A stretch of 41,331 nucleotides of DNA from Dehalococcoidia bacterium (GCA_030621105.1 JAUXIH010000001.1:1-41331); one strand, 5' to 3'. Counted from the first letter of the stretch, positions 7,371-28,487 are shown. Notes: a model not told the origin generated them from the sequence alone. Made by a program: numbers and translations.

Positions 7371-7608
7371 TCATTATCATTGCACACTTATGCTATTCTA
7401 CCCTTCCAACCGCAACGGCAAGATATCATCCTACGGTATAAATCGCCGCTATCTAGCACAAACGAACCGAGGAGAAAACAATGTCCATCTGCTAGAAAAT
7501 TCTGCCGTGTTCTATAAGATCTCCATATCAATCCAAAATACCCTATAGTTATTTTTCGTCTATAGCCATACAAAATAGGCCATTTATACATATTTTTCCG
7601 TAGAATAC

Positions 7609-7636
7609 TTGATAAATTAATGTAAACATATAAAAT
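7609..7636 (+). promoter_or_regulatory. Candidate promoter of the nrpR-hisF-FMN operon
   Basis: TTGATA (7609-7614), 16-nt spacer, TAAAAT (7631-7636). Confidence 0.3.
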
Positions 7637-7641
7637 AACAC

Positions 7642-7655
7642 GGTAAAAGGTTACC
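7642..7655 (+). promoter_or_regulatory. 14-bp palindrome GGTAAAAGGTTACC, candidate operator
   Basis: Inverted repeat GGTAA/TTACC, with the same length and GG-N10-CC frame as the methanogen NrpR operator GGAA-N6-TTCC. It starts 6 nt after the predicted -10. Confidence 0.3.
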
Positions 7656-7685: not shown

Positions 7686-8684
7686 GTGTTACTACAATCC
7701 CCTCAAGAGGTAGAACGCAAGGTTATATCTATCCTGAAGGTTCTGAGTGAGTCTCAGGAGCCTCTGGGAGCGAGGGTCATTGCCCAACGCATGAAAGGCT
7801 ACGGAGTTGAGCTGGGCGAAAGGGCGGTGAGATACCACCTCAAGACGACGGATGAACAGGGGTTAACCCAACTAGTAGGACGGCGAGACGGTCGGTTGCT
7901 TACTGAGAAGGGAGCGGAAGAAGTAAAGAGTGCTCTGGTTGAAGACAAGGTTGGCTTTGCCCTCTCCGGAATCGAGCTCCTCGCTTTTCGCACCAACTTC
8001 AATTGGGAGAAGTGCAGCGGCCTAGTTCCAGTTAATATCTCTTATTTCCCTAAAGAAAAATTCAGCAAAGCGCTTCGAGCAATGAAGCCCGCTTTTAAAG
8101 AGGGTCTCTGCGTAAGTGATCTGGTGGCAGTAGCTTCTGAGGGAGAACGACTCGGAGAATTAGTCATCCCCCAGGGCAAGATAGGACTGGCAACAGTTTG
8201 TAGCATTGTAATTAATGGCTCACTGCTCAAAGCCGGTGTTCCCATGAGTTCTAGATTTGGGGGCATACTCCAAGTTCGAAATCACAAACCTCTTCGCTTC
8301 ATAGAGATCATTCACTATGCTGGCTGCTCCCTAGACCCATCGGAGATATTCATCAGGGCCAGAATGACCTCCGTCGGAGGAGTGGCAAAAATGGGTGACG
8401 GGAGAATACTGGCCAACTTCCGGGAAATACCAGCGATATGCCAACCGATAACAGAAGAGGTAGTAGCCAAGCTGAAGAAGGCAGGGCTGCAAGGATTGAT
8501 TATGATGGGGCATACTAGCGAACCGGTGTGCGAAGTGCCCGTGGAACTTAACAAAATTGGACTGGTTCTTATCGGAGGCCTGAACCCCGTAGCCGCTGCC
8601 CAGGAGGCAGGCATAGAGACCGAAAGCCGTGCTATGAGCACCGTCATGGAGTATAGAGACTTAATCAAAATTGAGGAGCTTTAA
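7686..8684 (+). CDS. nrpR: NrpR-type nitrogen regulatory repressor (winged HTH plus one NrpR/DUF128 domain)
   Basis: N-terminal wHTH ILKVLSESQEPLGARVIAQRMKGYGVELGERAVRYHLK followed by a roughly 230-aa domain resembling the NrpR regulatory domain. Its size matches the one-domain Methanosarcina type. SD AAGGAG lies 5 nt before the GTG. Context is nitrogen genes. Confidence 0.7.
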   Translation: MLLQSPQEVERKVISILKVLSESQEPLGARVIAQRMKGYGVELGERAVRYHLKTTDEQGLTQLVGRRDGRLLTEKGAEEVKSALVEDKVGFALSGIELLAFRTNFNWEKCSGLVPVNISYFPKEKFSKALRAMKPAFKEGLCVSDLVAVASEGERLGELVIPQGKIGLATVCSIVINGSLLKAGVPMSSRFGGILQVRNHKPLRFIEIIHYAGCSLDPSEIFIRARMTSVGGVAKMGDGRILANFREIPAICQPITEEVVAKLKKAGLQGLIMMGHTSEPVCEVPVELNKIGLVLIGGLNPVAAAQEAGIETESRAMSTVMEYRDLIKIEEL

Positions 8685-8686
8685 AG

Positions 8687-9457
8687 ATGAAAGAGATAAG
8701 AATTGTACCTTGCCTGGACGTCAAAGACGGGAGAGTAGTCAAGGGGGTAAACTTCGTAAACTTGCGGGACGCCCGAGACCCCGTGGAGGCGGCTGAGGCC
8801 TATTGTCGAGAGGGGGCAGACGAGCTCGTTTTCCTCGATATCATGGCTACGGTCGAGAACAGGAAAACAAGGCTGGAATGGGTGAAGAAGGTGGCGGAAA
8901 AAGTTACTATACCTTTTGCCGTTGGAGGTGGCATCGGGAGCACCAAGGATATGAAAGGCCTGTTCCAACTCGGCGTGGACAAGGTGTCAATCAATACCGC
9001 AGCGGTGAAAAATCCCGAACTCATAGGGGAGGCCTCTAAGGAGTTTGGAAAAGAGAAACTTGTGGTTGCTATCGATGGAAGGAAGAATCCCTTGGGAAGC
9101 GGTCTCCCCAGATTGGAAGTGGTAGTTAAAAGCGGCGGCGAGTCCACGGGGATGGATATTGTGGGGTGGGCCAAGAGGGTGGAAGAGCTGGGTGCGGGGG
9201 AGGTCTTACTCACAAGCAAGGATGCCGATGGGACCAAGGAAGGCTATGACCTGGAGATGACAAAAGCGGTTGCCGAAGCAGTCTCAATTCCGGTCACTGC
9301 TTCGGGGGGTGCAGGCAAATTAGAGCACTTTTATGAAGCGGTGGCGATCGGCAAAGCATCAGCAGTATTAGCTGCCTCTGTCTTCCACTTCGGAGAAATA
9401 TCTATACCCGAATGCAAAAAATACCTCAGGGAAAGAGGAATACCAGTAAAAATATAA
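8687..9457 (+). CDS. hisF: Imidazole glycerol phosphate synthase cyclase subunit HisF, copy 1
   Basis: [44 protein letters not shown] and ASGGAG motifs, collinear with T. maritima HisF. Starts 2 nt after the nrpR stop. Confidence 0.9.
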   Translation: MKEIRIVPCLDVKDGRVVKGVNFVNLRDARDPVEAAEAYCREGADELVFLDIMATVENRKTRLEWVKKVAEKVTIPFAVGGGIGSTKDMKGLFQLGVDKVSINTAAVKNPELIGEASKEFGKEKLVVAIDGRKNPLGSGLPRLEVVVKSGGESTGMDIVGWAKRVEELGAGEVLLTSKDADGTKEGYDLEMTKAVAEAVSIPVTASGGAGKLEHFYEAVAIGKASAVLAASVFHFGEISIPECKKYLRERGIPVKI

Positions 9458-9471
9458 AGGGAGGTAAACCA

Positions 9472-11040
9472 ATGTCTTTAAGCAAACCTAATGCCAGTGC
9501 CGCGACAGGCACTAGAAACAGGGTAGCAGCCTCACCAAGTTCAGGCTTATGTGTAGTCTGTGAGGATGGCTGTCCAGGAACATGTGAGGTGGGAAAATCC
9601 GCCATCAGGGGAAAAGAGGTTATGTATCCTCAGCCTTTCGGTAAAACTATGGCTGGATCGGAAAAAGACTATCCCGTCGATTTCTCTCACTTCAACATTC
9701 AGGGGAGCTGTGTCGGAGCCGCAGGAATCGAGGCAGATTCAGATAAAGCCCTGTTTCAAAACGTAGATGTTTCCACTCAAATAGGAGCCGGAAGAAATAA
9801 GATTAATATGAAAGTCCCCTTCTTCACTGGCGCACTGGGTTCTACAGAGATTGCCCGAGTCAATTGGGAAGGTGCTGCCGTCGCCATTGCTGTGACTGGT
9901 GCTGTGCTTGTATGTGGTGAAAATGTCTGTGGCATGGACCCCAATGCCGAATTTAAAAATGGCAAGGTGGTGAAATCACCAGAGTTGGCAAGAAGGGTAA
10001 AGATTTATAAAGATTGGTACAACGGCTATGGCGCCATGCTGGTCCAGGCCAATGTGGAAGATACCAGGATTGGCGTTCCTGAGTACGCTGTGGAGAGACT
10101 AGGAATTCAAGGCATCGAGCTAAAATGGGGGCAAGGAGCCAAGGACATCGGCGGAGAAGTCAAGTTGCCCTCCTTAGAAAGAGCTCTGGAACTCAAGAGA
10201 AGAGGCTACATCGTCATACCTGATCCGGAAAGCCCATCAGCTCAGGCAGCATACAACGCTGGAGCCATAAAGGAGTTTGAGCGTCATTCCCGTCTGGGCA
10301 TGGTAGAAGAGGAAACATTCCTCAAAGAAGTAGAAAGGCTAAGAAAAATAGGTGCCAAATACATCACATTGAAAACAGGAGCTTATCGGCCAGCAGATTT
10401 AGCCCGGGCGGTGAAGTTTGCCTCAGAGGCAAAAATAGACTTGCTTACCGTAGATGGAGCTGGTGGTGGTACGGGCATGAGTCCCTGGCGCATGATGAAT
10501 GAGTGGGGAATTCCTACAGTATACTTGGAGAGCCTCCTGTACAAATTCCTCAGCAGGCTGGCAGAGAAAGGGGAATTTATTCCCAGTTGCGCCATAGCAG
10601 GAGGAATCGCACTGGAGGATCAAATATTTAAAGCACTGGCTATGGGGGCACCTTATGTAAAGGCAGTGTGCATGGGACGCTCCACTTTAACTGCCGCCAT
10701 GGTTGGGAAAACACAGGCTAGGCTGCTTAAGAAAAAACATGGCGAAGGAGCAGAATACGATGATGCGCTGTTCAAGACTTTCATCAATGCAGCAGAACTC
10801 AAGGAAGAATATGGAGAGGAAGCATTCAAACGTATTCCCCCTGCAGCAATAGGAGTATATTCCTACTATGATAGGCTTACAACCGGACTGAAACAACTCA
10901 TGGCAGGGGAACGGAAATTTGCTCTCAACTTGCTAGATAGGAACGACATATTTGCCCTGACACGAGAAGCTGCAGATGTTTCGGGTATCCCATACATAAT
11001 GGAAGCGGATATGGAAGAGGCGGAGAAGATTCTAGACTAA
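9472..11040 (+). CDS. FMN-binding glutamate synthase family protein (COG0069-like paralogue, no ferredoxin domain)
   Basis: KWGQGAKDIGGEVK and DGAGGGTGMSPW correspond to the GltS FMN-domain motifs. N-terminal Cys motif CVVCEDGCPGTC. The ATG at 9472 follows AAGGGAGG; the track start at 9412 overlaps hisF. Confidence 0.8.
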   Translation: MSLSKPNASAATGTRNRVAASPSSGLCVVCEDGCPGTCEVGKSAIRGKEVMYPQPFGKTMAGSEKDYPVDFSHFNIQGSCVGAAGIEADSDKALFQNVDVSTQIGAGRNKINMKVPFFTGALGSTEIARVNWEGAAVAIAVTGAVLVCGENVCGMDPNAEFKNGKVVKSPELARRVKIYKDWYNGYGAMLVQANVEDTRIGVPEYAVERLGIQGIELKWGQGAKDIGGEVKLPSLERALELKRRGYIVIPDPESPSAQAAYNAGAIKEFERHSRLGMVEEETFLKEVERLRKIGAKYITLKTGAYRPADLARAVKFASEAKIDLLTVDGAGGGTGMSPWRMMNEWGIPTVYLESLLYKFLSRLAEKGEFIPSCAIAGGIALEDQIFKALAMGAPYVKAVCMGRSTLTAAMVGKTQARLLKKKHGEGAEYDDALFKTFINAAELKEEYGEEAFKRIPPAAIGVYSYYDRLTTGLKQLMAGERKFALNLLDRNDIFALTREAADVSGIPYIMEADMEEAEKILD

Positions 11041-11058
11041 AGGAGAAGAGATACTTAA

Positions 11059-11154
11059 AACAGTTTAAAGCACTGCGCTTCCCCCTTCTGTGCACTGTCA
11101 TGCCCTTCAGGCACACTGGCGGTGACTGAGGATCGGGTTAAAGAAAACCTGTAG
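11059..11154 (+). pseudogene. Ferredoxin-like C-terminal remnant without a start codon
   Basis: Translates as NSLKHCASPFCALSCPSGTLAVTEDRVKENL*. It resembles the C-terminus of the downstream Fe-S protein (VCIANCPNEALALSTDGEN). It is in the same frame as 9472-11040 but separated from it by two TAA codons (11038, 11056). Confidence 0.3.
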
Positions 11155-11434
11155 AGCACCTATTTCACCACGACGGTTAAGCGCTCAGGGTCTCACGGAC
11201 TTAGTGGTACAGACTTTTGCCACGTGTGTAGTCACAATGGGAACCGACTTCATCAAAAGCCCGATCAATATGCTTACAAACACGCTCTTGATTCGGCGGC
11301 TGAAACTCCCGAGGCAAAGGTATACGCAATGCGCATTTCTCCACTCTAGATCCACTTGCCTTCTTATGACTTGAGATTCCACAGTTATTTCTGAGCCTTG
11401 CCATCCGACACCATTGACAGGGGAGTGCAGCGTC

Positions 11435-11463
11435 TTGACAACACATGGGAAAGGTGATATCTT
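11435..11463 (+). promoter_or_regulatory. Candidate internal promoter for the Fe-S/hisH/GOGAT genes
   Basis: TTGACA (11435-11440), 17-nt spacer, TATCTT (11458-11463). A second TTGACA is at 11414-11419. Confidence 0.35.
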
Positions 11464-11470
11464 CTGGCAC

Positions 11471-11484
11471 GGAAGTCAGTTGCC
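11471..11484 (+). promoter_or_regulatory. GGAA-N6-TGCC, near match to an NrpR operator
   Basis: GGAAGTCAGTTGCC lies 7 nt after the predicted -10. It has one mismatch to GGAA-N6-TTCC. Confidence 0.25.
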
Positions 11485-11507
11485 GTTTGCCGTAAGGAGC
11501 TTTGAAA

Positions 11508-11969
11508 TTGAGAAAGGTTTATGTTAAGGAAGAAGCTTGTATCGGCTGTGGCCTTTGTCAGGTTTACTGCCAAGCTGAGCATTCTCAGTCGAAGGATATA
11601 GTGAAAGCGTTCAAGAGGGAAACTCCCCGCCCCCTGCCGCGCATCCATGTGGAGAGAAAGGGAGAGGTCTGCTTCGCCGTTCAGTGCCGCCAATGCGCTG
11701 AGCCCTGGTGTGTTTATTCTTGTCTGACCGGCGCAATGCGCAGAGATCCGATAACCGGCATAGTTACAGTTGATGATGATAAGTGTATTGGATGCTGGAC
11801 TTGCATATTAGCCTGTCCCTATGGAGCATTGGTCAGGGACGAAAGCCGCAAGCTTGTCAGCAAGTGTGATTCTTGTCCCGAGCATGAGGTACCTGTCTGC
11901 ATAGCTAACTGCCCCAACGAAGCACTGGCGCTGAGTACAGACGGCGAAAATGGGAAGGCTCGGAGCTGA
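11508..11969 (+). CDS. Four-cluster [4Fe-4S] ferredoxin-type protein (HycB/DmsB-like)
   Basis: Four Cys motifs: CIGCGLCQVYC, CRQCAEPWCVYSC, CIGCWTCILACP and CDSCPEHEVPVCIANCP. The TTG at 11508 sits 8 nt after AAGGAG; the track start TTG at 11502 is only 2 nt after it. Confidence 0.85.
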   Translation: MRKVYVKEEACIGCGLCQVYCQAEHSQSKDIVKAFKRETPRPLPRIHVERKGEVCFAVQCRQCAEPWCVYSCLTGAMRRDPITGIVTVDDDKCIGCWTCILACPYGALVRDESRKLVSKCDSCPEHEVPVCIANCPNEALALSTDGENGKARS

Positions 11970-12132
11970 GGCTGACGAAAGGAGGTGGAGCCAATGCTAA
12001 AGCGGACATTTGTGGTGACGCTGTAGATGAGATATGCTTTAATCGGTATTTCCCAAGGGTGGAAGCTGAGCGCATGGGCGGCATTATTCGTGACGGCGTT
12101 GAGGCCAAAACTGTGGAGGCGGTTCAAGCCAG

Positions 12133-12759
12133 GTGATTGCCATAATCGACTACGGCGCCGGAAATTTGCGTAGCGTTGCCAACGCCATCACCAAGCTTGG
12201 TTACCAATCAAGGGTGACAGGCAATCCCGGTGATGTGCTTGATGCTAGCGCAGTTATCTTCCCCGGCGTTGGGGCCGCCGCAGATACCATGTGCAACCTG
12301 AGAGAAACCGGTATGGCTGATGTCGTCCGCCAGTTGATTTTAGAGGAACGACCCTTTTTCGCCATCTGCGTTGGAATGCAGGTTCTATTTACCGATACTG
12401 AAGAGGGTGGTGGACATGAGTGTCTGGACATTATCCCAGGCCAAGTCAAAAAGCTCCCTCGCGGGCAGAAGATACCCCACATGGGATGGAACCAGGTCAA
12501 ACAGAAGATCTCTCACCCGATATTCGACGGCATACCTGATAAATCTAACTTCTACTTTGTTCACAGCTACTATGTGGTGCCAGATGATGAAGCGCTGGTA
12601 GCCGGTGAAACCGAGTACGGCACCTCATTTTGCAGCATCATCACTCAGGGAAATCTGGTAGCAACCCAGTTTCATCCCGAAAAGAGTGGAAAGGTCGGCC
12701 TCAAGTTATACGACAATTTCATAAAGCTCGCCCTGGCGGCAAGGGCAACCAAAGAATAA
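12133..12759 (+). CDS. hisH: Imidazole glycerol phosphate synthase glutaminase subunit HisH
   Basis: IAIIDYGAGNLRSV, catalytic Cys in ICVGMQ, and the His/Glu motif QFHPEKS. GTG start. Confidence 0.9.
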   Translation: MIAIIDYGAGNLRSVANAITKLGYQSRVTGNPGDVLDASAVIFPGVGAAADTMCNLRETGMADVVRQLILEERPFFAICVGMQVLFTDTEEGGGHECLDIIPGQVKKLPRGQKIPHMGWNQVKQKISHPIFDGIPDKSNFYFVHSYYVVPDDEALVAGETEYGTSFCSIITQGNLVATQFHPEKSGKVGLKLYDNFIKLALAARATKE

Positions 12760-12775
12760 ACCTAGAAGAGCCATA

Positions 12776-14044
12776 ATGACAAAAATAGAGAAGGTAAAAT
12801 ATCTGATTATAGGTAACTCTGCTGGAGGTATCGGAGCAGTGGAGGCCATCCGCGAAATAGATAAGACTGGTTCAATCAAGATAATCTCCAATGAACCCTA
12901 CCCTACCTATTCCCGTCCACTAATCTCAAAGTATCTTGCCAGTAAATGCAGCCTAGAGAGTATGCTCTTTCGCCCACCTGACTTCTACGAGAAGAACAAC
13001 ATCCACACATACCTAGGTAAAACGGTGAAGAGGATGGACACTGATGGGCACACAGTCGAACTGGAGGAAGGAAAAACAATCGTCTGGAGAAAATTGCTAC
13101 TTGCTACCGGCGGTTTACCCATTGTGCCTCAGATAAAGAACATCAACCAGAGGGGGGTTTTCACTTTCATCACCCTCGACGATGCTAAAGCAATCGACGG
13201 TTCTCTGGAGAATGCCGATAAGGCTATAGTTATCGGCGGCGGGCTTATCGGCATCAGCGCAGCTGAAGCCCTGGTGAAACGAGGCATCAAGGTCACCATT
13301 GTCGAAATGAAGGAGAGGATTCTAAATACCATCCTGGATGAACAGGCATCAGCAATGGCTGAAGAGGCTCTCCGGCAGGCTGAAGTTGAGGTCATTACCG
13401 GCCACACTGTGGACAAGGTTACAGGAGAAAGGAAAACAAAAGGGGTAAGGCTAGATGATGGGAAGGAGATCCCCTGCAGCCTGATAGTGGTGGCTATTGG
13501 CGTTGTGCCCCGTATCGAGCTTGCAGAGGGTACCGAGATAAAGATAAATCGCGGTATAGTGGTAGACCACAATATGGCTACAAGCTATCCCGATGTCTAT
13601 TCCTGCGGAGATGCAGCTGAAGCATATGACTTTATCTATGGCACAAACCGTCTCACTCCCATCTGGCCAAATGCCTACATTGGAGGCAGGACTGCAGGCT
13701 ATAACATGGCTGGCATGAAGGCCAAATATCCCGGCGGCACGGCCATGAACGCGCTCAACTACTTCGGACTCGACATCGCTACAGCAGGCGTGGTAGCCCC
13801 ACCGGATGAGAACGGCTATGAAGTGCTCGCGAGGCAAAACGATGGCATCTATAAGAAAGTGATATTAAAAGATGACTCGGTAGTGGGGATGGTATTTGTG
13901 GGAGATATCGAGAAGTCGGGCATAGTCTTTGGCCTGATGAGAGATCGAGTCAAGGTTAGTGGTTTCAAGCAGGAGCTTGTAGCAGACGATTTCGGTCTGG
14001 TATCCCTGCCGCGGGATCTGTGGCAGGAGCGACTGGAGCATTAA
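12776..14044 (+). CDS. FAD/NAD(P)-binding pyridine nucleotide-disulfide family oxidoreductase
   Basis: N-terminal dinucleotide fold YLIIGNSAGGIGA, second fold AIVIGGGLIGISAAEAL, and the SCGDAAE motif. 422 aa, resembling NADH oxidase / ferredoxin reductase enzymes. Confidence 0.8.
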   Translation: MTKIEKVKYLIIGNSAGGIGAVEAIREIDKTGSIKIISNEPYPTYSRPLISKYLASKCSLESMLFRPPDFYEKNNIHTYLGKTVKRMDTDGHTVELEEGKTIVWRKLLLATGGLPIVPQIKNINQRGVFTFITLDDAKAIDGSLENADKAIVIGGGLIGISAAEALVKRGIKVTIVEMKERILNTILDEQASAMAEEALRQAEVEVITGHTVDKVTGERKTKGVRLDDGKEIPCSLIVVAIGVVPRIELAEGTEIKINRGIVVDHNMATSYPDVYSCGDAAEAYDFIYGTNRLTPIWPNAYIGGRTAGYNMAGMKAKYPGGTAMNALNYFGLDIATAGVVAPPDENGYEVLARQNDGIYKKVILKDDSVVGMVFVGDIEKSGIVFGLMRDRVKVSGFKQELVADDFGLVSLPRDLWQERLEH

Positions 14045-14046
14045 TA

Positions 14047-15195
14047 ATGAAAGATCTCAATGAGACAAACAACCCATACTGCGATGATAAGGTAATAGAC
14101 GCCTGTTCTATCTTTGGAATGATGAATACCACGGGAGAGCGGTTTTCCGGTGAGTGTGTGATAAGGGCCATTGCCAATATGCATGTTCGTGGCAATGGAC
14201 TTGGCGGTGGATTTGCCATCTACGGGATCTACCCAGAATACGCTGGTTGCTATGCCTTTCACATAATGTACCTGAGCCGGGAAGGAAAGTCAGAGGTGGA
14301 AGATTTTCTTAAGGATCGGTTCCGCTTCATGACTGCTGAGGAGGTGCCCACCCGGCGGACCCAGAAGATAGTGAATCCACCCCTAGTATGGCGCTACTTC
14401 CTTGAGGTGGATCAACAGAAATGCAACGGACAGCCACAGGATGACTATGTTATGGACAGAGTTATGGAGATCAATACGAGGATTAAAGATGCCTTTGTCT
14501 TCTCCAGTGGCAAGGACATGGCCGTCTTCAAAGGAGTAGGGTATCCCGAGGAAATAGCCGAGTACTTCTGCCTGGAGGAATACGAAGGTTACCTGTGGAC
14601 GGCGCATGGTAGGTTTCCTACCAATACTCCCGGGTGGTGGGGCGGAGCACATCCTTTTAGCATCCTGGACTGGACGGTAGTTCATAACGGAGAAATCTCG
14701 TCCTACGGTATAAATCGGCGCTACCTGGAAGGGTTCGGCTACCACTGCACCATGCAGACCGATACCGAGGTCATAGCCTATGCCGTTGACCTACTCGTGC
14801 GCAAGCATGGACTTCCTATGGAGATAGTCGCCAAGATACTAGCCCCTCCTTTCTGGGATGATATAGAGCGCTGTCCAGAGGACGAGCAAAAACTATTTCG
14901 AACTCTGCGCCAGGTATATGGAAGCTTGTTACTAAATGGGCCTTTCACGGTAATCATCGCTAACCACGGGGAAATGATCGGATTTACAGACAGGATAAGG
15001 CTGCGTCCCCTCACCGCGGGGGTGAAAGACTCCGTGCTTTACCTTTCTTCCGAGGAGTCGGCTATTCGCCTAATCTGTCCAGATTTGGATCAGGCATGGA
15101 TTCCGATGGGTGGCGAGCCTGTTGTTGGGAGCCTCGAGAGGCCAATTGTGTCCAAAGGAGTGACTATTGCAGAGAGGAACGAAGCCCCATGCTGA
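14047..15195 (+). CDS. Class II (Ntn) glutamine amidotransferase, glutamate synthase domain-1-type subunit
   Basis: Ntn-type motif ACSIFGMM, and later HGRFPTNT and HNGEIS, typical of GltS/PurF-type amidotransferases. The ATG at 14047 sits 7 nt after GGAG; the track start at 14020 overlaps the upstream gene. Confidence 0.8.
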
Positions 15196-15956
15196 CCAAG
15201 AGAATCATTCCCTGCCTTGATGTAACTCATGGGAGAGTGGTTAAGGGCACGAGCTTCACCCATCTACATGATGCAGGTGACCCTGTGGATCTGGCCGCAT
15301 TCTACTACGAAGAGGGCGCCGACGAGCTCGTCTTTCTGGATATTGGAGCCACTCCTGAAGGCCGTGACATTATGGTTGATGTGGTTGAGCGCGTCTCGGA
15401 ACAGGTCTTCATTCCTCTCACCGTCGGTGGGGGGCTGCGCAGCACCCGTGACATGCGTCGCATGTTGGAGGCAGGAGCCGATAAGATAACCGTCAACACT
15501 GCAGCAGTGCAGAACCCGAAGCTTATCAGCGAAGGAGCGCAAAGGTTTGGCTCCCAGTGCATCGTCGTAGCCATTGATGCGAAGCGGGTAAGTGGTGAGG
15601 ATATGCCAAAATGGGAGGTCTTAACCCATGGGGGGAGAAAACCAACAGGTATTGATGCCGTCGAATGGGCAAAGCAAGCTGTCGCTCTTGGCGCTGGAGA
15701 ATTCATGCTTACCAGCTGGGATGCTGACGGTCAGCAGACTGGATATGACCTGGAGTTGACTCGTATCATCAGCGAGGCAGTGACTGTACCGGTAATCGCC
15801 AGCGGTGGAGCGGGGAATCTCGAGCACCTCTATCATGCGCTCGTTGCTGGTAAGGCCGATGCGGTTTTAGCTGCCAGCATCTTTCACTACAAGACTTACT
15901 CAATTCAGCAGGTAAAAGACTATCTCGCCGAAAAAGGACTTCCCATAAGAAAGTAG
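15189..15956 (+). CDS. hisF: Imidazole glycerol phosphate synthase cyclase subunit HisF, copy 2
   Basis: [55 protein letters not shown] and ASGGAG. The ATG at 15189 overlaps the upstream stop (ATGCTGA). Confidence 0.9.
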
Positions 15957-15960
15957 GGGA

Positions 15961-17472
15961 ATGAAAGTGAAGAGCTATTTACCACCAAAATTTATCGTTG
16001 AGCGCAACCCTGATCGGTGCATCCAGTGTCAGGTGTGTGTCAATCAGTGCAGCTTCGATGTCCATTACTACGATGCCGAGGATGACGAAGTAAGAAGCCA
16101 TGAGGAGAACTGTGTCGGATGTCACCGTTGCGTCGTGTTCTGTCCCACTAATGCTCTAACTATCAGGAAAAACCCGTTGGACTACAGAGAGAACTATAAC
16201 TGGCGTCCAGAGGTTATTGAAGATATTACCAAGCAGGCCGAAACTGGCGGAGTGCTTCTCACTGGAATGGGTAACGACAAGGGGTATCGCATCTACTGGG
16301 ATCATCTTGTTATCAATGCCAGTCAGGTGACCAACCCCTCTATCGACCCACTGCGTGAGCCTATGGAGCTTATAACTTACTTGGGACGAAAACCAGACAG
16401 GCTAGAACTCGATCATAACTCCCTCAGTCTGAAAACAGAACTTGCACCCCAGGTCAAGATTGAGGTCCCAGTAATGTTTTCCGCCATGTCTTACGGAGCA
16501 GTGAGCCTCAATGTACAGAAGTCTCTAGCTAGAGCAGCCACTGAAGCAGGCACTCTGTGGAACACAGGTGAGGGGGGACTGCACCACTCTCTCTATGAAT
16601 ATGCAGATAATACCATTGTGCAGGTAGCATCGGGCCGCTTTGGAGTGCATTCCAGATATCTTAATGCTGCCCGAATAATCGAGATTAAAATCGGCCAAGG
16701 AGCCAAACCAGGCATCGGGGGGCACCTTCCCGGTGAAAAAGTGAGCGCTGATGTGGCAGCGACCAGAACGATTCCCCAAGGTACAGATGCGCTGTCTCCC
16801 GCGCCGCAACATGATATCTATTCCATTGAGGACTTAGCCCAGCTCATCCATGCCCTGAAAGAGGCTACCAACTATACCAAGCCGGTAGCAGTCAAAATAG
16901 CCGCTGTTCACAATTCAGCGGCTATCGCCATCGGTATGGTGCGAGCGGGAGCAGATATCATAGTCCTTGATGGGTTCCGAGGGGCTACTGGAGCTGCACC
17001 CAAGGTCATCCGCGACAATGTCGGCATTCCAATTGAGTTAGCACTCGCTTCAGTAGACAGTCGCCTGAGACAGGAAGGTATCCGCAGCCAAGCCTCTATT
17101 GTAATCTCGGGAGGAATCAGAAGCAGTGGGGATGTAGTCAAGGCGATCGCCCTTGGTGCCGATGCCATCTATATCGGAACCGCCGCCCTCGTTGCTCTGG
17201 GTTGTACTCTCTGCCAGCAATGTCATACGGGTAAATGCGCCTGGGGCATTTGTACCACCAACCCCTTCCTAACCAAGAGAATCAACCCCGACATCGGGAC
17301 AAGGCGGCTAACCAACCTTCTGCGCAGCTGGAGCCTGGAGATCAAGGATATTCTGGGAGGTATGGGCATCAATGCTGTGGAGAGTTTGCGTGGTAATCGT
17401 CTGCACCTGAGAGGTATCGGCCTTACCAAGACCGAACTCGAAATTCTGGGAGTAAAGATGGCAGGGAACTGA
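15961..17472 (+). CDS. Glutamate synthase FMN (domain 2) subunit with N-terminal 2x[4Fe-4S] ferredoxin domain
   Basis: CIQCQVCVNQC and CVGCHRCVVFCP, then KIGQGAKPGIGGHLPGEK, DGFRGATGAAP and CQQCHTGKC, typical of the archaeal-type GltB FMN domain. Confidence 0.85.
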   Translation: MKVKSYLPPKFIVERNPDRCIQCQVCVNQCSFDVHYYDAEDDEVRSHEENCVGCHRCVVFCPTNALTIRKNPLDYRENYNWRPEVIEDITKQAETGGVLLTGMGNDKGYRIYWDHLVINASQVTNPSIDPLREPMELITYLGRKPDRLELDHNSLSLKTELAPQVKIEVPVMFSAMSYGAVSLNVQKSLARAATEAGTLWNTGEGGLHHSLYEYADNTIVQVASGRFGVHSRYLNAARIIEIKIGQGAKPGIGGHLPGEKVSADVAATRTIPQGTDALSPAPQHDIYSIEDLAQLIHALKEATNYTKPVAVKIAAVHNSAAIAIGMVRAGADIIVLDGFRGATGAAPKVIRDNVGIPIELALASVDSRLRQEGIRSQASIVISGGIRSSGDVVKAIALGADAIYIGTAALVALGCTLCQQCHTGKCAWGICTTNPFLTKRINPDIGTRRLTNLLRSWSLEIKDILGGMGINAVESLRGNRLHLRGIGLTKTELEILGVKMAGN

Positions 17473-17473
17473 A

Positions 17474-18247
17474 ATGGAAAATAAGGTTATTAAAAGAACG
17501 GCCAGCCCAATAGATAGAATAGATGCTACGGGTTTTTCTTCCCGGGAACTCAACGCCAGAATCAGAGAGCTGGCCCACAACGGGACTGAGAGAGTTGAAC
17601 TGTATAACGTCTACGGACAGAGATATATCGGTACGGACCTGGACAGGCCTATAGAGGTTAAGATATTCGGCACCCCTGGCAATGACTTGGGGATATTTAT
17701 GGACAGTCCGCGGATTACTGTCTATGGCAATGCACAGGATGGCTGTGGTAACACAATGAATGACGGTGAAATAGTTGTTCATGGTCACGCCGGAGATATC
17801 GCAGGACTATCAGCCCGCGGAGGCAAGATCTTCATCAGAGATGATGTCGGTTATAGAACAGGAATTCACATGAAGGAATACGGGGACAAAAAACCAGCGT
17901 TAGTAATAGGCGGCACCTCGCAAGACTTCCTCGGTGAATACATGGCGGGCGGAATTCTGATTCTTCTCGGTCTCAACTTGCAAAAAGAAGAGGCACACCG
18001 GACCAATTTCATCGGCACAGGCATGCATGGGGGGGTTATCTACTTAAGAGGTAGCATAAACGACTTCCAGTTAGGTAAAGAAGTAGGCACTGCTGAACCA
18101 GAAGAGAAAGACTGGCAAATTCTTCGCAAGTTCATAAGCGAATTTGCAGACCATTTTGGCTATAACGCCGAGGAGATACTGGAACATAAATTCATTAAGT
18201 TATTCCCACTCTGGCTACGACCTTACGGCAGGCTATATGCCTACTAA
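17474..18247 (+). CDS. Glutamate synthase GXGXG (domain 3) subunit
   Basis: Repeated GxxGxxxG beta-helix motifs (GTPGNDLG, GNAQDGCGNTMNDGEIVVHG, GGILILLG). Starts 2 nt after the upstream stop. Confidence 0.85.
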   Translation: MENKVIKRTASPIDRIDATGFSSRELNARIRELAHNGTERVELYNVYGQRYIGTDLDRPIEVKIFGTPGNDLGIFMDSPRITVYGNAQDGCGNTMNDGEIVVHGHAGDIAGLSARGGKIFIRDDVGYRTGIHMKEYGDKKPALVIGGTSQDFLGEYMAGGILILLGLNLQKEEAHRTNFIGTGMHGGVIYLRGSINDFQLGKEVGTAEPEEKDWQILRKFISEFADHFGYNAEEILEHKFIKLFPLWLRPYGRLYAY

Positions 18248-18518
18248 ATGCGGAGATAACCATTAGAAAGTTAAACGGTGTCAGCCTGAAGGGCTTGTAA
18301 TAAATAATAGAAACTAACGAGCAAATATGCGAAATACTGATGGGCCTAAACAAGGTTGGAATGATCCTTCACGGTAGTTTCAATCTGGTAGCGGCCGCTC
18401 TCGGAAGCAGGACAGATGTGTTAAATTGTGCGATTAGTGAGGTAATTAATTAACTATAAAAACTGGAGAGCTTCCAAGACCTGCGAACCACAGGCAAACG
18501 GAGCCGAACTGAGTAGTT

Positions 18519-19193
18519 TTGTTTAAAGTACTTATCATAGCAAATGAAAACGAGCAGATCAGAAAACTGCGACTAGAACTTGCTGAGAAAGATTTCATCT
18601 GCTCAATCGCTGCTAACAATGAAAAGGTGATCGAGCAGCTTGCGGATAAGGCCTTGGATCTAGTACTCATGGACATTAACGCCTTGCCAGCTGCCCAGGG
18701 AATGCGCCAATTGATCCAAAAAATCAAACGGGAAAGAAACTTACCCGTCCTCGCCCTCATTTCCAAAAATACGCTTGGTAGCCTCGACACTGTCTCAAGT
18801 ATAGATGATTTTGTGATTGAGCCGTGGAGCGCCTCCGAAGTAGCAGTAAGAGCAAAACGTGTCCTGTGGCGAATAAGCAACATAGATAGCGAGGAGTTAA
18901 TCAAATGTGGCGACTTAGTGATTGACATGGCCAGATGCGAAGTATCCCTCAGCGGCAAATTGGTAGAACTGACATTCAAGGAGTACGGATTGCTCAAGTT
19001 TCTGGCAAGTAGCAAGGGGAGAGTGCTTACCCGCGAGGCATTGCTCAGCAATGTCTGGGGCTATAACTACTACGGTGGTGATAGGACAGTAGATGTCCAC
19101 ATAAGAAGACTGAGAAGCAAGATAGAAGATGCCAATCACACCTTTATAGAAACGGTGAGAAACATAGGATACAGGTTCAGAGAAAAGGGGTAA
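18519..19193 (+). CDS. Orphan OmpR/PhoB-family response regulator with atypical receiver domain (GlnR-like by context)
   Basis: C-terminal winged helix (LTFKEYGLLKFL..., TVDVHIRRLRSKI, GYRF). The receiver keeps the Asp in LVLMDI but has AN in place of the acidic pair (LIIANEN) and E in place of the conserved Lys (IEPW). No kinase gene adjacent. TTG start with a weak SD. Confidence 0.8.
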   Translation: MFKVLIIANENEQIRKLRLELAEKDFICSIAANNEKVIEQLADKALDLVLMDINALPAAQGMRQLIQKIKRERNLPVLALISKNTLGSLDTVSSIDDFVIEPWSASEVAVRAKRVLWRISNIDSEELIKCGDLVIDMARCEVSLSGKLVELTFKEYGLLKFLASSKGRVLTREALLSNVWGYNYYGGDRTVDVHIRRLRSKIEDANHTFIETVRNIGYRFREKG

Positions 19194-19485
19194 TACTATA
19201 TTGAGTGGCATTGGTGGCAGCCTATAAGATGCGCTGTACTGAAGTAACATTTCCAACCTGCCTCGTCTTACAGATGGACAGGGGCTACGTGTAGGGTATA
19301 CCAGCCTGCACAACATAAATCTCCAGTGTAGACCACATCACCTTGGCATACTCTATCGAAGGAAGAGTTTCACTTCTTGATATAGGCCTTATGGAATAGG
19401 CGATGTCTGTTGACCTCGATTCGGTTGAATCCATGGTAAGTCAGAGAGGCGGGTTTCCTCCTATTAGTCACGACCAATAAATTTT

Positions 19486-19523
19486 GTAATACGGTTTTAA
19501 CCCAAGCGTAATACGATTGAAAC
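19486..19523 (+). promoter_or_regulatory. Four 5-nt boxes at 11-bp periodicity resembling GlnR a/b sites
   Basis: GTAAT-acggtt-TTAAC-ccaagc-GTAAT-acgatt-GAAAC. The GTAATACG octamer recurs 22 bp apart. The array ends 48 nt before the amt ATG. Confidence 0.4.
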
Positions 19524-19531
19524 ATATAGCT

Positions 19532-19570
19532 GCTATCCTTTTCCCCAGAAAGTTCAGAAAGGAGGATAGC
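19532..19570 (+). promoter_or_regulatory. Hairpin that could sequester the amt Shine-Dalgarno
   Basis: GCTATCCTTTT (19532-19542) can pair with AAAGGAGGATAGC (19558-19570). This gives 11 contiguous pairs including two G-U and covers GGAGG at 19561-19565. Confidence 0.3.
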
Positions 19571-19571
19571 C

Positions 19572-20969
19572 ATGGATTTGAGAAGCAAAGTGATGAGGAT
19601 AGCGTTGAGAGTGGGATTAACTCTTGGTCTCGTCTGCCTTGTGTGGCTGGCGTGGGCAGCAACGAAAGGCGTAGTTCTGGCTGCTGACCCCACCGGAATA
19701 GGAGGAACAGCAGATGCGGCAATAGACTATGTGTGGATATTAGTCTGTGCCTTCTTGGTAATGTTTATGCAGCCAGGGTTTGCCCTGGTTGGAGTTGGAT
19801 TTACCCGAACCAAGAACGCAGCCAATTTTATGACCAAAAATGTGATGGATTATGTCATCGGCTCGCTTGTCTTTTTCCTTGTAGGCTACGCCATAATGAT
19901 GGGTGGTGATTGGCATGGCCTCGTGGGCACACACGGCTGGCTTATGTTGGGCAGCTACTATGATGTGGATAAATACCTCAATATGTTTTGGATGCTGGTC
20001 TTTTGTGCCACTGCTGCCACCATTGTCGCTGGTGCTGTCGCTGAACGGTTGAAGTTTAAAGCATATCTCATCTACAGCGTCATAGTGAGCGCCATTATTT
20101 ATCCCATCTATGGCCACTGGGTCTGGGGTGGAGGCTGGCTCTCGCTACTGCCATTCGGGTTAGGAGCTATAGACTTTGCTGGTTCAGGAGTAGTCCACGC
20201 CATCGGCGGTTTCGTTGGATTGGCAGGGGCAATGGTTCTTGGTCCCAGGTTTGGCAAATATGGTAAAGATGGAAAGCCTCGAGCAATCCCTGGGCACAGC
20301 ATAGTATTAGCTACCTTGGGCGTCTTCATTCTCTGGTTTGGCTGGTTTGGCTTTAACTCAGGCAGCACTTGTGACGCCCACCATCTAAGAATTGCAGTTA
20401 TTGCCGTAAACACTAACCTAGCTGCTGCTGCCGGTGGTTTGTCAGCGTTGTTCATATCACGGTGGAAGACAGAGAAATGGGATATAGGTATGCTTCTGAA
20501 CGGCGTATTGGCAGGACTGGTTGCCATTACCGCCTCCTGCGCTTGGGTAGAAGGTTGGGCAGCAATTGTAATTGGTCTTATTGCCGGAGCGTTAATGTAC
20601 GCCAGCGTCAAATTTATTGAAGCAAGAGGTATAGATGATCCCGTGGGAGCAGTAAGTGTGCATGGCGTAAATGGATTATGGGGGCTCTTAAGTGTTGGCT
20701 TCTTTGCTGATGGGACATACGGGAATTACTCCACTGGGGCTCCATTCGCCACAGGTCTGTTCTATGGTGGCGGAGGGGGGCAGTTACTTGCCCAGTTTAT
20801 CAGTGTAGTAATGGTTGCCGCTTGGGCATTCGGTATGGGCTACCTAACTTTTAAGCTAATGGATAAGGCGTTTGGCATTCGTGTCTCACCTGAAGAGGAA
20901 CTTCAGGGCTTGGATATTCCGGAGCATGGCACTCCATCCTACCCCGACTTTATCCAGGTGCGAAGATAA
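19572..20969 (+). CDS. amt: Ammonium transporter
   Basis: 465 aa, N-terminal signal-like segment and about 11 TM helices. Amt motifs DFAGSGVVH and GWFGFN. Confidence 0.92.
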   Translation: MDLRSKVMRIALRVGLTLGLVCLVWLAWAATKGVVLAADPTGIGGTADAAIDYVWILVCAFLVMFMQPGFALVGVGFTRTKNAANFMTKNVMDYVIGSLVFFLVGYAIMMGGDWHGLVGTHGWLMLGSYYDVDKYLNMFWMLVFCATAATIVAGAVAERLKFKAYLIYSVIVSAIIYPIYGHWVWGGGWLSLLPFGLGAIDFAGSGVVHAIGGFVGLAGAMVLGPRFGKYGKDGKPRAIPGHSIVLATLGVFILWFGWFGFNSGSTCDAHHLRIAVIAVNTNLAAAAGGLSALFISRWKTEKWDIGMLLNGVLAGLVAITASCAWVEGWAAIVIGLIAGALMYASVKFIEARGIDDPVGAVSVHGVNGLWGLLSVGFFADGTYGNYSTGAPFATGLFYGGGGGQLLAQFISVVMVAAWAFGMGYLTFKLMDKAFGIRVSPEEELQGLDIPEHGTPSYPDFIQVRR

Positions 20970-20989
20970 ACTAGCGAGGAGTATGACAA

Positions 20990-21328
20990 ATGAAAAAAAT
21001 AGAAGCAATAATCAGGGTAGAGAAATTCGAGGAGGTAAAGGACGCTTTAAAGCAAGCAGGCTATCCAGGGATGACAAAGACCCCTGTTGAGGGCCACGGG
21101 AAGCAGAAGGGACTCAAACAACAGTTTCGCGGCACAACATTTGAGGTAGAGTTTCCCCCCAAGCTAAAGTTGGAAATTGTTGCTCAGGATGGCGATGTGA
21201 AAGGAATAGTGGATACTATTGTGACTCACGCCAGGACCGGAGAGGTCGGCGATGGCAAGATCTTTGTTTCCCCTGTGGACAACGTGATCAGAGTAAGAAC
21301 GGGAGAGACAGGCGGGGAAGCCCTATGA
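20990..21328 (+). CDS. glnK: Nitrogen regulatory protein P-II
   Basis: 112 aa, MKKIEAIIR..., T-loop GHGKQKGLKQQFRGTTFEV, C-terminal GDGKIFV. Immediately downstream of amt. Confidence 0.92.
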   Translation: MKKIEAIIRVEKFEEVKDALKQAGYPGMTKTPVEGHGKQKGLKQQFRGTTFEVEFPPKLKLEIVAQDGDVKGIVDTIVTHARTGEVGDGKIFVSPVDNVIRVRTGETGGEAL

Positions 21329-21349
21329 TAACTTAAGGGTCATGTTTTA

Positions 21350-21383
21350 AAGGGGGCACCGATAGTAGCCTGAGTGCCCCCTT
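21350..21383 (+). terminator. Terminator hairpin after glnK
   Basis: AAGGGGGCAC ... GTGCCCCCTT, a 10-bp GC-rich stem with a 14-nt loop, 22 nt after the stop. The T tract is short. Confidence 0.6.
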
Positions 21384-21439
21384 GCTAACAAGATGAGAAT
21401 CTTCACAAAAACTCAAGGAGGAAATAAGAAAACAGAATA

Positions 21440-21453
21440 TAGTAAGCTTACTA
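21440..21453 (+). promoter_or_regulatory. Perfect 14-bp palindrome TAGTAAGCTTACTA upstream of glnA
   Basis: Self-complementary. It lies about 20 nt upstream of the predicted extended -10. Confidence 0.3.
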
Positions 21454-21470
21454 GGAGTGGTTCTGATTTG

Positions 21471-21479
21471 TGTTATGAT
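21471..21479 (+). promoter_or_regulatory. Extended -10 promoter element for glnA
   Basis: TGTTATGAT (TGn + TATGAT), 36 nt upstream of the glnA ATG. Confidence 0.35.
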
Positions 21480-21514
21480 GACAGCAATTATAATTATATT
21501 AAGGAGGAGAATTA

Positions 21515-22858: not shown

Positions 22859-22900
22859 GTGCCATACAGTCTGTTGTATTCTGTATCCTGAGAGGATAAT

Positions 22901-24643: not shown

Positions 24644-25227
24644 AAATAGGAGTGCTTGCTTTGCAAGGAGCATTCTTGGAACATATCCATATCATGCAGC
24701 AACTGGGGGCAGAGGCTTCTCCCATTCGCCTGCCCAATGAGCTTGATGGAAAAGATGGTTTTATTATCCCCGGTGGAGAAAGTTCCGCTATGCTCAATCT
24801 GATGCAAAGCTTTAACCTCATCCAGCCCCTGCGAGAAATAGCCAAGGGTGGTGTGCCCATCTGGGGCACATGTGCCGGGATGATCCTGCTTGCCAAGAAG
24901 ATCTCTAATCTCGATACAGAGACTCTGGCCCTCATGGATATGACAGTCAGGCGTAACGCATTCGGGAGACAGATAGACAGTTTCGAGACTGAATTATCAA
25001 TCCCTGCCTTAGGAAATAAACCGTTTCCCGCTGTTTTTATCCGCGCCCCATTTATTGAAAGCGCAAGCCAGAAGGTAGAAATTCTAGCCAGATTACCAGA
25101 TGGCACTCCCGTAGCTGCCAAGCAGGGAAAGTTGCTGGTCACTGCTTTTCACCCTGAGCTAACTGGAGATCCAAGGCTACATGACTATTTCTTAAAAATT
25201 GTCACCTCCGCCGCTTCGAAGAAGTAG
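24640..25227 (+). CDS. pdxT: Pyridoxal 5'-phosphate synthase glutaminase subunit PdxT
   Basis: [18 protein letters not shown], catalytic GTCAGMI, RNAFGRQ and AFHPELT. The ATG overlaps the nadE TGA (ATGA). Confidence 0.9.
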
Positions 25228-25315
25228 GTAGAAGGCTGGGGTATGCCAGCGTTGCCCACACTCTTGATACTTACAACATACTGGAGAAAACCATTAACAA
25301 CGGCGAAAAATCACC

Positions 25316-25339
25316 CAAAATCCGAAATGCGAGATTTTG
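25316..25339 (-). terminator. Weak AT-rich hairpin downstream of tRNA-Lys
   Basis: CAAAATC/GATTTTG stem. On the minus strand it is followed by GGGTGATTTTTCG. Confidence 0.3.
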
Positions 25340-25343
25340 AATG

Positions 25344-25416
25344 TGAGCCGCCAGGGACTCGAACCCTGAACCTGCTGATTAAGAGTCAGCTGCTCTACCA
25401 GTTGAGCTAGCGGCCC
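25344..25416 (-). tRNA. tRNA-Lys (anticodon CTT)
   Basis: Minus-strand sequence GGGCCGCTAGCTCAACTGGTAGAGCAGCTGACTCTTAATCAGCAGGTTCAGGGTTCGAGTCCCTGGCGGCTCA folds as a cloverleaf. CCA is not encoded. Confidence 0.9.
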
Positions 25417-25472
25417 AGCACTCAGATATTAGCACCAGGAAAAACCTGAGACAAGCTGGCATATTCTTCATG

Positions 25473-26216: not shown

Positions 26217-26342
26217 ATAACACACTCCTTATATTTCATGATATATTTTTTCGGGAACTGCTCGAGCCTCTAACTTACTTACACGATATAACGAAGCATA
26301 TTAGATTTAGGTTTATGCGTGGTGATAAAATAACTTCCAGTC

Positions 26343-28236: not shown

Positions 28237-28309
<73 letters not shown>

Positions 28310-28312
28310 TTG

Positions 28313-28387: not shown

Positions 28388-28390
28388 TAT

Positions 28391-28475: not shown

Positions 28476-28487
28476 TGGAAAGTGTGA

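Follow-up and report, generated by a model that had tools for sequence, protein, structure and literature searches.

The subject of this analysis is a nitrogen-assimilation gene island in a 41,331-nucleotide (nt) stretch of DNA from a Dehalococcoidia bacterium (GCA_030621105.1 JAUXIH010000001.1:1-41331), the whole of which we refer to as the window. The island (7686-25227) encodes two copies of HisF, the subunit that acts as cyclase in imidazole glycerol phosphate (IGP) synthase, one copy of its glutaminase partner HisH, and a split glutamate synthase (GOGAT; GltS), and each hisF lies directly upstream of a gene related to the flavin mononucleotide (FMN) domain of that enzyme. An earlier reading made from the DNA alone (the sequence-only reading) took this repeated adjacency as a hint of a physical or functional link between HisF barrels and GOGAT subunits. 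The comparisons described below point instead to genes gathered into one nitrogen regulon. What appears to be new is a HisF subfamily, HisF1, with a degenerate HisH interface, seemingly fixed in an NrpR-hisF1-FMN1 operon beside the widespread protein FMN1. All genes of the island lie on the plus strand and are co-directional, at the positions given previously:

7686-8684, plus strand: NrpR-type nitrogen repressor with helix-turn-helix (HTH) and NRD domains, first gene of the NrpR-hisF1-FMN1 unit (PF01995, 279.5 bits; HTH_12, PF08461, 70 bits)
8687-9457, plus strand: hisF1, with an intact cyclase site and a degenerate HisH-docking surface (TIGR00735, 336.5 bits)
9472-11040, plus strand: FMN1, a divergent homologue of the glutamate synthase FMN domain (PF01645, 55 bits (55.5), amino acids (aa) 277-397 only)
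11502-11969, plus strand: Fer4_11 protein (HydN/DmsB-like poly-[4Fe-4S], 17 Cys; PF13247), first gene of the split GOGAT operon
12133-12759, plus strand: hisH (TIGR01855, 228.8 bits)
12776-14044, plus strand: FAD/NAD(P)H oxidoreductase, PadH/NirB-like (PF07992, 189 bits; NF045765, 316 bits, under that model's cut-off)
14047-15195, plus strand: GltB1, class II (Ntn) glutamine amidotransferase (PF00310, 42 bits)
15189-15956, plus strand: hisF2, canonical HisF (TIGR00735, 385.0 bits)
15961-17472, plus strand: GltB2, FMN domain flanked by a 2x[4Fe-4S] domain at the N terminus and a Cys cluster motif at the C terminus (PF01645, 463 bits)
17474-18247, plus strand: GltB3, GXGXG beta-helix subunit (PF01493, 108.7 bits)
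18519-25227, plus strand: OmpR-type regulator, Amt, PII, glutamine synthetase (GS), glutamine-dependent NadE and PdxT (Pfam matches; gene order common to many relatives)

A gap of 461 nt separates FMN1 from the Fer4_11 gene. Both HisF proteins score above the TIGR00735 equivalog cut-off (294.55 bits), HisH exceeds the TIGR01855 cut-off (105.4 bits), and both FMN genes pass the PF01645 gathering score (20.4 bits). Thus the coordinates and scores bear out two intact hisF genes, each directly followed by a PF01645 gene, as well as the placement of hisH between the Fe-S protein and the flavoprotein. The label "COG0069-type", given previously to both FMN genes, suits GltB2, and FMN1 is only a distant relative. 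Among scanned open reading frames of at least 150 aa in the window no other his genes were found, in agreement with the earlier description. The identical arrangement occurs in four independent assemblies (two from JGI and two from Logan), one of them a 98.6-kb JGI contig, and is therefore no assembly artefact.

The two HisF paralogues are old and both appear functional. They share 54-57% identity, either is 60% identical to Thermus HisF, and the HisF1 clade sits on a long stem branch. A recent duplication was rejected, as HisF1 and HisF2 are no closer to each other (57%) than either is to the Thermus protein (60%). Residues were numbered through alignment to HisF of Thermotoga maritima (T. 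maritima), with the sequence verified against PDB, and this alignment agrees with the sequence-only reading that R5, D11, E46, D98, K99, D130 and E167 are all present in both window copies. Invariance was checked first in 9 + 44 sequences and then in 129 HisF1-type and 163 HisF2-type sequences, and 14 residues proved invariant in both clades (D11, K19, E46, G82, K99, N103, T104, D130, E167, D176, G177, G203, A224, and S225). These include the catalytic D11 and D130, the loop-1 K19, and the two phosphate sites (G82/N103/T104 and D176/G177/G203/A224/S225), all kept in 129/129 HisF1 sequences. Within the ammonia gate (R5/E46/K99/E167), E46, K99 and E167 are invariant in both clades and R5 is invariant in HisF2, with R in 71, K in 56 and N in one of the HisF1 sequences. 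[quoted passage not shown] The relaxed selection that might betray a redundant duplicate was not seen, median ratios of non-synonymous to synonymous substitution (dN/dS) being 0.055 for HisF1 and 0.073 for HisF2, and a decaying second copy was rejected on values of at most about 0.1. Membership of the related WbuZ (246.4 and 269.8 bits for the window proteins; cut-off 299.7) and AglZ families (217.8 and 222.4 bits; cut-off 310) was likewise rejected. The HisF1 clade carries fixed changes at three otherwise invariant sites (G30R, A131G, and W138L), and the only clade-specific surface change in HisF2 is I83L.

The paralogues differ on the face that meets HisH. We defined this interface as the 37 T. 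maritima HisF residues that contact HisH in PDB 1GPW (PMC9032424, S1 Table). Within it, D98 touches N12 of HisH near the catalytic triad (PMC8115485) and R249 is the hinge partner of HisH W123 (PMC9032424), both being functionally important contacts. The quartet L2/D98/Q123/R249 is canonical in 162/163 HisF2-type sequences vs. 0/129 HisF1-type sequences. Across the latter, D98 is replaced in 36%, R249 in 77%, Q123 in 98%, and L2 in 100%; position 98 is filled by D (82), N (21), H (17), S (6), G (2) or Y (1), position 249 by K (76), R (29), N (14), E (5) or T (2), position 123 mostly by E, and position 2 by K, N, E, Q or R. All 47 HisF1 sequences that lack D98 nonetheless keep the 14 catalytic, phosphate and gate residues. 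Entropy, computed on 128 non-redundant HisF1 and 162 non-redundant HisF2 sequences, gives the same picture, in that the 19 highly conserved interface positions average 0.10 in HisF2 against 0.57 for the rest of that protein, whereas in HisF1 they average 0.57 against 0.37 for the rest. For HisF1 the drop in interface conservation reaches significance (Mann-Whitney p = 0.018), and peripheral interface positions (2, 3, 70, 98, and 249) vary even among close HisF1 relatives. Substitutions specific to the HisF1 clade do not cluster significantly at the interface (Fisher p = 0.18), and the shift in its hydrophobicity and charge is modest, partly mirroring a more charged protein overall.

With the canonical docking quartet in none of the 129 sequences while the catalytic and most gate residues stay invariant, HisF1 is most likely a HisH-independent, ammonia-using cyclase. 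Such activity has precedents, as isolated HisF of T. maritima and Escherichia coli shows HisH-independent, ammonia-dependent activity in vitro (PMC11350729), and HisH-independent activity of Corynebacterium glutamicum HisF is probable in vivo (PMC3896937). The earlier proposal that both copies can dock HisH stands for HisF2 and is not supported for HisF1. Nor is the notion of two assemblies sharing one HisH, given the lost conservation at L2, D98, Q123 and R249. Roughly one in 10 of the diverse HisF representatives nearest HisF1 (113 full-length) also lacks at least two docking residues, therefore this trait is not unique to the HisF1 clade. Many of the best-scoring representatives (P0362, P0364, P0365, and similar) are HisA-HisF fusions of 490-510 aa, several of which also lack D98, Q123 or R249, and one is a HisH-HisA-HisF fusion of 707 aa.

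HisH and HisF2, on the other hand, are embedded in a GOGAT operon which is complete without them. The order GltB1-GltB2-GltB3 (GATase_2, the FMN domain Glu_synthase, and GXGXG) is conserved in about 80 loci, our GltB2 survey comprising 80 metagenome loci centered on that gene; loci from the surveys carry L-numbers below. GltB2 matches GltS large chains in PDB (E 2e-63) with aligned GQGAKPG and GCTLCQQCHTGKC motifs, and Cys20 of GltB1, in its ACSIFG motif, is invariant in 59/59 orthologues, which implies a 19-residue propeptide. The full order Fer4_11-hisH-PyrRedox-GltB1-hisF2-GltB2-GltB3 is conserved throughout a single large clade. The shorter Fer4_11-PyrRedox-GltB1-GltB2-GltB3, with zero his genes, is found in more distant operons and in three nested ones; operons without hisH and hisF2 take basal positions in the GltB2 tree, and the three nested cases look like secondary losses. 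GltB2 orthologues at 72-84% identity do without hisF2. The two his genes occur together in 31 loci, are both missing from nine, and are never found singly, which fits a functional HisH-HisF2 heterodimer recruited into a self-sufficient five-gene GOGAT. HisH has the score, catalytic triad and HisF-contacting Trp and Lys expected of the family, and in its orthologues the Cys of (A/G)xCxGxQ, the Trp of PHMGWN, and HPEKS are invariant (39/39). The Fer4_11 gene heads the operon in 39 relatives. The persistence of the five-gene operon where his genes are absent agrees with the earlier suggestion of an electron-input module, and from this conserved gene order we infer that Fer4_11 and the Pyr_redox_2 flavoprotein feed electrons to GOGAT. 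The ATGCTGA overlap between the GltB1 stop and the hisF2 start (15189-15195), previously read as translational coupling, is present in the window; as a conserved coupling it does not hold up, with spacing in relatives from -4 to about +260 nt.

FMN1 is a different case. Aligned against the GltB2 family with hhalign, its family gives 97.8% probability (E 9e-13, 335 columns), and the GQGAK, DGxGGxTG and GGI motifs of the two families align (DGAGGGTG and AGGI in FMN1). It has a 4-Cys motif at its N terminus and lacks the Cys cluster motif that GltB2 has at the C terminus. A sequence search of PDB returned only spurious matches to de novo TIM barrels, NCBIfam gave no match, and an AlphaFold2 model built on 25 homologues of at least 78% identity was unusable (mean predicted local distance difference test score, pLDDT, 45.8). 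Homologues with 63-95% identity span Chloroflexota, Nitrospirota, Thermodesulfobacteriota, Actinomycetota, and others, and a dN/dS of 0.14 against L009 indicates purifying selection. Most FMN1 loci have neither a glutaminase nor a GXGXG gene nearby. The gene is usually followed by those for a small Fe-S protein and NuoE/NuoF-like or FAD proteins and typically lies near NrpR, GS, glutamate dehydrogenase (GDH), Amt or NadE. In the window its customary NuoE/NuoF-like or FAD partner genes are missing, and FMN1 may borrow the ferredoxin and flavoprotein of the GOGAT operon. FMN1 adjoins a GDH gene in L028, L032, L035, L036, L037, L063 and L078 (Thermodesulfobacteriota, Aerophobetes-type), which argues against it being merely a redundant ammonia-dependent glutamate-forming enzyme. 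An FMN1-like paralogue (52-55% identity) was also seen inside or beside the GOGAT operon in L102 (7801-9384), L110 (3883-5469) and L143 (600-2186), standing in L102 directly between hisF2 and GltB2.

How closely is hisF tied to these FMN genes? Our FMN1 survey covered 80 species genomes, with the upstream region assessable in 62. The gene directly upstream was hisF1 in 7/62, all of them Dehalococcoidia or Chloroflexota and always arranged NrpR-hisF1-FMN1, and the remaining 55/62 lacked an upstream hisF. Identity to the window FMN1 is 74-84% with a hisF1 neighbor vs. 74-79% without. NrpR directly precedes FMN1 in L026 and L031 and lies ~380 nt upstream in L001, all three without hisF, therefore hisF1 entered an operon that already existed. 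Confinement of the adjacency to this genome, which the sequence-only reading had named as damaging to its case, was not observed, and other genomes and metagenome loci share it; both hisF genes share one contig in three arrangements beyond that of the window (L171, L172, and L173), and L006 is at its left edge 85-90% identical in nucleotides to GOGAT-hisF2 loci. The proposed physical or ammonia-handling link between HisF and FMN subunits nevertheless finds no support in these surveys, given 55/62 FMN1 genes without hisF and similarly conserved, GltB2 orthologues without hisF2, and a HisF2 surface unchanged apart from I83L. Literature queries on hisF, glutamate synthase, Dehalococcoides and NrpR in combination brought up nothing relevant.

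A candidate operator offers a simpler thread between the two units. Two copies were located in the window:

7642-7655, plus strand: operator-like palindrome GGTAAAAGGTTACC, closely preceded by a promoter-like -10 element and followed after 31 nt by the NrpR start codon
11470-11485, plus strand: degenerate copy of the palindrome with two mismatches, 17 nt before the Fer4_11 start codon

The motif, GG[CT]AA-N4-TT[GA]CC, emerged only from orthologous upstream regions, a palindrome search of the window's intergenic regions alone having found nothing shared. Related loci totalling 1.97 Mb contain 46 copies, where about 7.5 are expected, and 24/46 are upstream of Fer4_11, 12-30 nt (one 91 nt) before its start, including at his-less operons. 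A further four lie upstream of FMN1, three upstream of NrpR-hisF1, and one upstream of hisF1. The 14-bp palindrome often falls within a perfect inverted repeat of at least 30 nt (e.g., L095 5530 and L174 6401). The window palindromes sit just after promoter-like sites (7609-7636, and TTGACA-17-TATCTT at 11435-11463), and the promoter scan overall returned no more sites than chance. The NrpR operator pattern of methanogens is GGAA-N6-TTCC; it fits the window at four sites, all of them outside the relevant intergenic regions. Because the palindrome precedes both units, they probably answer to one regulator, and the NrpR encoded at the locus is the obvious candidate, with another nitrogen regulator as a possible alternative. 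NrpR of methanogens is a 2-oxoglutarate-responsive repressor, with nif and glnA among its repressed targets (PMC9765008).

Genes for glutamine amidotransferases gather around these loci more broadly (hisH/F, nadE, pdxT, purQLS, asnB, carAB, guaA, and purF), with a density of 1.07 per 20 kb around FMN1 and 2.71 around GltB2. The combinations differ from locus to locus, for example FMN1-carA-carB-guaA-hisH-hisF-nadE (L022), gdh-FMN1-x-hisH-hisF-purF (L036), purF-carB-carA-hisF-hisH (L083), and nadE-purQ-purSL-pdxT with NrpR-hisF1-FMN1-..-asnB (L173), and in L171 pdxT has entered the GOGAT operon between the flavoprotein and GltB1 genes. Copies of pdxT, which encodes the glutaminase subunit of PLP synthase (24640-25227 in the window, L171 8162-8764, L172 11052-11627, and L173 8173-8799), have no pdxS within reach, and pdxT is divergently adjacent to NrpR-hisF1 in L006, L172 and L173. 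Recruitment of glutamine-using genes into one nitrogen regulon is the better explanation of the hisF adjacency, as shared regulation of the genes that use glutamine and those that make glutamine and glutamate accounts for it without a HisF-FMN complex.

The closeness of the two hisF/FMN pairs in the window has its own history, traces of which remain in the sequence:

11065-11139, plus strand: pseudogene remnant of a small Fe-S protein gene (60% identity over 25 aa to L006 and L173 proteins, E 6e-10, small target)
18232-18450, plus strand: decayed second NrpR fragment (tblastn, 37% identity to NrpR residues 250-322 (73 aa), E 9e-8)

The first contains a frameshift and stop codons, and the intact gene follows FMN1 in relatives; a possible C-terminal trace of the same gene was seen at 11443-11478, within 11041-11501. 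At the place of the second, many relatives carry an intact NrpR gene, flanked by GltB3 and the response regulator. The modules also shift position relative to one another. L009 (1-6789) matches the window (9701-26724) at 92-97% nucleotide identity, with FMN1 joined directly to the GS-NadE-PdxT region and without the 10.4-kb block that in the window (about 11005-21391) runs from Fer4_11 to PII. As L009 lacks this block and the window carries decayed remnants, the nearness of the two pairs is recent and incidental. L009 is binned as "Latescibacteria" and is probably mis-binned. Upstream of NrpR, a 26-aa stretch (7378-7455) shares 58% identity with residues 202-227 of GltB1 (E 0.002 for a search of the window) and may be a rearrangement scar or a chance match. 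Beyond the island, an Rfam scan gave tRNAs and 16S rRNA only, and the gene cluster contained no riboswitch. At 28237-28642 the genes of five tRNAs (Phe, Gly, Leu, Gln, and Asn) stand tightly together, and a partial 16S rRNA gene on the minus strand (40171-41331) runs past the window end and probably accounts for the contig break.

Taken together, we lean toward a picture, on balance a little more probable than its negation, of a one-regulator nitrogen island with an ordinary HisH-HisF2, a HisH-independent HisF1, and no HisF-FMN complex. The island would consist of two transcription units under one regulator, probably NrpR. The second unit would be a five-gene split GOGAT comprising poly-ferredoxin, NAD(P)H flavoprotein, GltB1 glutaminase, GltB2 FMN synthase, and GltB3, into which the ancestor of one Dehalococcoidia clade would have inserted hisH and hisF2 at two separate junctions. 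HisH and HisF2 would form a normal glutamine-dependent IGP synthase heterodimer for histidine, merely co-transcribed with GOGAT in parallel to NadE, PdxT, PurQLS, AsnB, CarAB, GuaA and PurF in related loci. The first unit would be the widespread NrpR-FMN1 pair with an anciently diverged hisF1 inserted, whose product presumably keeps the PRFAR cyclase reaction, no longer docks HisH, and most likely takes free ammonia through the still-intact gate. A bolder extension is that one regulator governs two nitrogen modes, a glutamine mode (HisH/HisF2 and GOGAT) and an ammonia mode (the NrpR-hisF1-FMN1 operon, with HisF1 and the glutaminase-less FMN1 each using free ammonia), which we offer as a tentative idea with the odds against it.

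The alternatives each capture part of the evidence. In the strongest form of the adjacency argument, HisF barrels would dock split GltS FMN subunits as an ammonia conduit or adapter, perhaps replacing the GltB central domain. Here one may cite the two operons, formed independently, in which a PF01645 gene directly follows hisF, the L102 paralogue of FMN1 directly after hisF2, the position of hisF2 at the GltB1/GltB2 junction (overlapping the GltB1 stop codon in the window), and a gene order of glutamine amidotransferase (GAT)-barrel-FMN-GXGXG that mirrors the domain order of fused GltB. We nonetheless judge it very improbable, considering that most lineages have the FMN genes without a hisF beside them and that these genes are no more diverged where it is present, that PRFAR-binding and catalytic residues are invariant in both clades when a mere channel needs none, that HisF2 has an unchanged surface bar I83L and a fully conserved HisH face, that pdxT, nadE, purQ and asnB have been inserted into the same operons likewise, and that the GltB1/hisF2 overlap is not conserved. 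Nor did HisF1 seem a good candidate for having left histidine synthesis, whether for another bis-phosphorylated substrate or for sensing of PRFAR or 5-aminoimidazole-4-carboxamide ribonucleotide (AICAR) on behalf of the nitrogen regulon. Its long stem branch, the fixed changes G30R, A131G and W138L, and its invariable linkage to the NrpR gene are what one might expect of such a shift, but a protein above the HisF equivalog cut-off and below those of WbuZ and AglZ, with every known catalytic and phosphate-binding residue retained, makes it distinctly improbable.

Two further alternatives leave the cyclase in place and concern its source of ammonia. If HisF1 and HisF2 both paired with the single HisH, the cell would have two glutamine-dependent IGP synthases, differing for example in regulation or kinetics, in keeping with the finding of only one hisH within 10-20 kb in the four loci carrying both hisF genes and with the D98, R5, E46, K99 and E167 of the window HisF1. 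The replacement figures at D98, R249, Q123 and L2 given above, in a family whose HisH and HisF2 keep the matching residues invariant and at contacts of known importance (fD98 and fR249; PMC8115485; PMC9032424), render this unlikely. Alternatively, HisF1 might have acquired a new ammonia donor on a remodelled N-terminal face, be it PdxT, GltB1, or FMN1 acting as a glutamate oxidase. C40, F77 and I196 are 100% conserved in HisF1, F93, L95, K122 and E123 are >80% conserved, and pdxT without pdxS stands directly beside NrpR-hisF1 in three loci (L006, L172, and L173). However, interface positions 2, 3, 70, 98 and 249 vary, interface entropy exceeds that of the rest of HisF1, pdxT is absent from seven HisF1 loci, and no candidate partner is consistently adjacent, such that a new donor is in our view rather improbable.

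Several points weigh against the picture of a one-regulator island with a HisH-independent HisF1. That hisF landed directly upstream of a PF01645-type gene in two events is a coincidence not fully explained by it, and the paralogue that directly follows hisF2 in L102 adds to this. The window's own HisF1 retains D98 and R5, and could still bind HisH weakly. The remodelled positions C40, F77, I196, F93 and K122 are conserved in HisF1, which could mean a new partner instead of none. The link between palindrome and NrpR is positional only, and the Fer4_11 copy in the window is degenerate. Counts of his genes and of hisH cover contigs and loci, and a second, divergent hisH or a canonical his operon may lie elsewhere in the genome. 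The average-genome baseline for amidotransferase genes of ~0.1 per 20 kb is an estimate rather than a measured value.

IGP synthase is a textbook model of ammonia channelling and allostery. A HisF clade that keeps its cyclase site and most of its gate but not HisH would be an evolutionary experiment on the independence of a synthase from its glutaminase. If the idea of separate ammonia and glutamine modes were true, HisF1 would be the first case of a dedicated ammonia-dependent IGP synthase that evolved naturally, and with FMN1 anaerobes would have a new and widespread reductive aminase linked to NAD(P)H or ferredoxin. Our surveys flag FMN1 as a central, uncharacterized player in anaerobic nitrogen assimilation, and provide a regulatory context and a candidate operator for the poorly studied bacterial NrpR regulon. 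Most glutamine-amidotransferase genes in Dehalococcoidia and several anaerobic phyla cluster around GS, GOGAT, NrpR and FMN1, and tight gene adjacency within such islands is no proof of physical coupling.

Compared with known systems, HisH and HisF2 resemble the HisH-HisF IGP synthase of T. maritima (PDB 1GPW) in scores, catalytic triad, cyclase, gate and docking residues, but their genes lie two GOGAT genes apart and inside a glutamate synthase operon rather than a his operon. HisF1 shares the cyclase machinery of that enzyme without the conserved HisH-docking residues. In this it is akin to the HisH-independent HisF proteins (PMC11350729; PMC3896937), having an intact cyclase site and three invariant gate residues, the features to be expected of a HisF that naturally uses ammonia. 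Those cases involve a single canonical HisF with a normal interface, whereas HisF1 would be a dedicated second paralogue with a drifted interface in an NrpR operon. The archaeal-type split glutamate synthase (COG0067, COG0069, and COG0070) likewise has separate GltB1, GltB2 and GltB3, as in the window and in that order. The operon described here is bacterial, however, always has genes for a HydN-like poly-ferredoxin and a Pyr_redox_2 flavoprotein in front instead of a GltD-type subunit, and is interleaved with hisH and hisF2 in one clade and once with pdxT. The glycan amidation systems WbuY/WbuZ and AglZ/HisF2 provide a precedent for recruiting HisF-type barrels to ammonia transfer of other kinds, although the window HisFs fall under those cut-offs and over that of HisF, with no glycan genes in their context. 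As in the methanogen NrpR regulon, an NrpR gene heads the first unit and a 14-bp inverted repeat lies near the promoter-like sites of both units; the palindrome here is GG[CT]AA-N4-TT[GA]CC rather than the GGAA-N6-TTCC of methanogens, and the putative regulon extends to amidotransferase genes.

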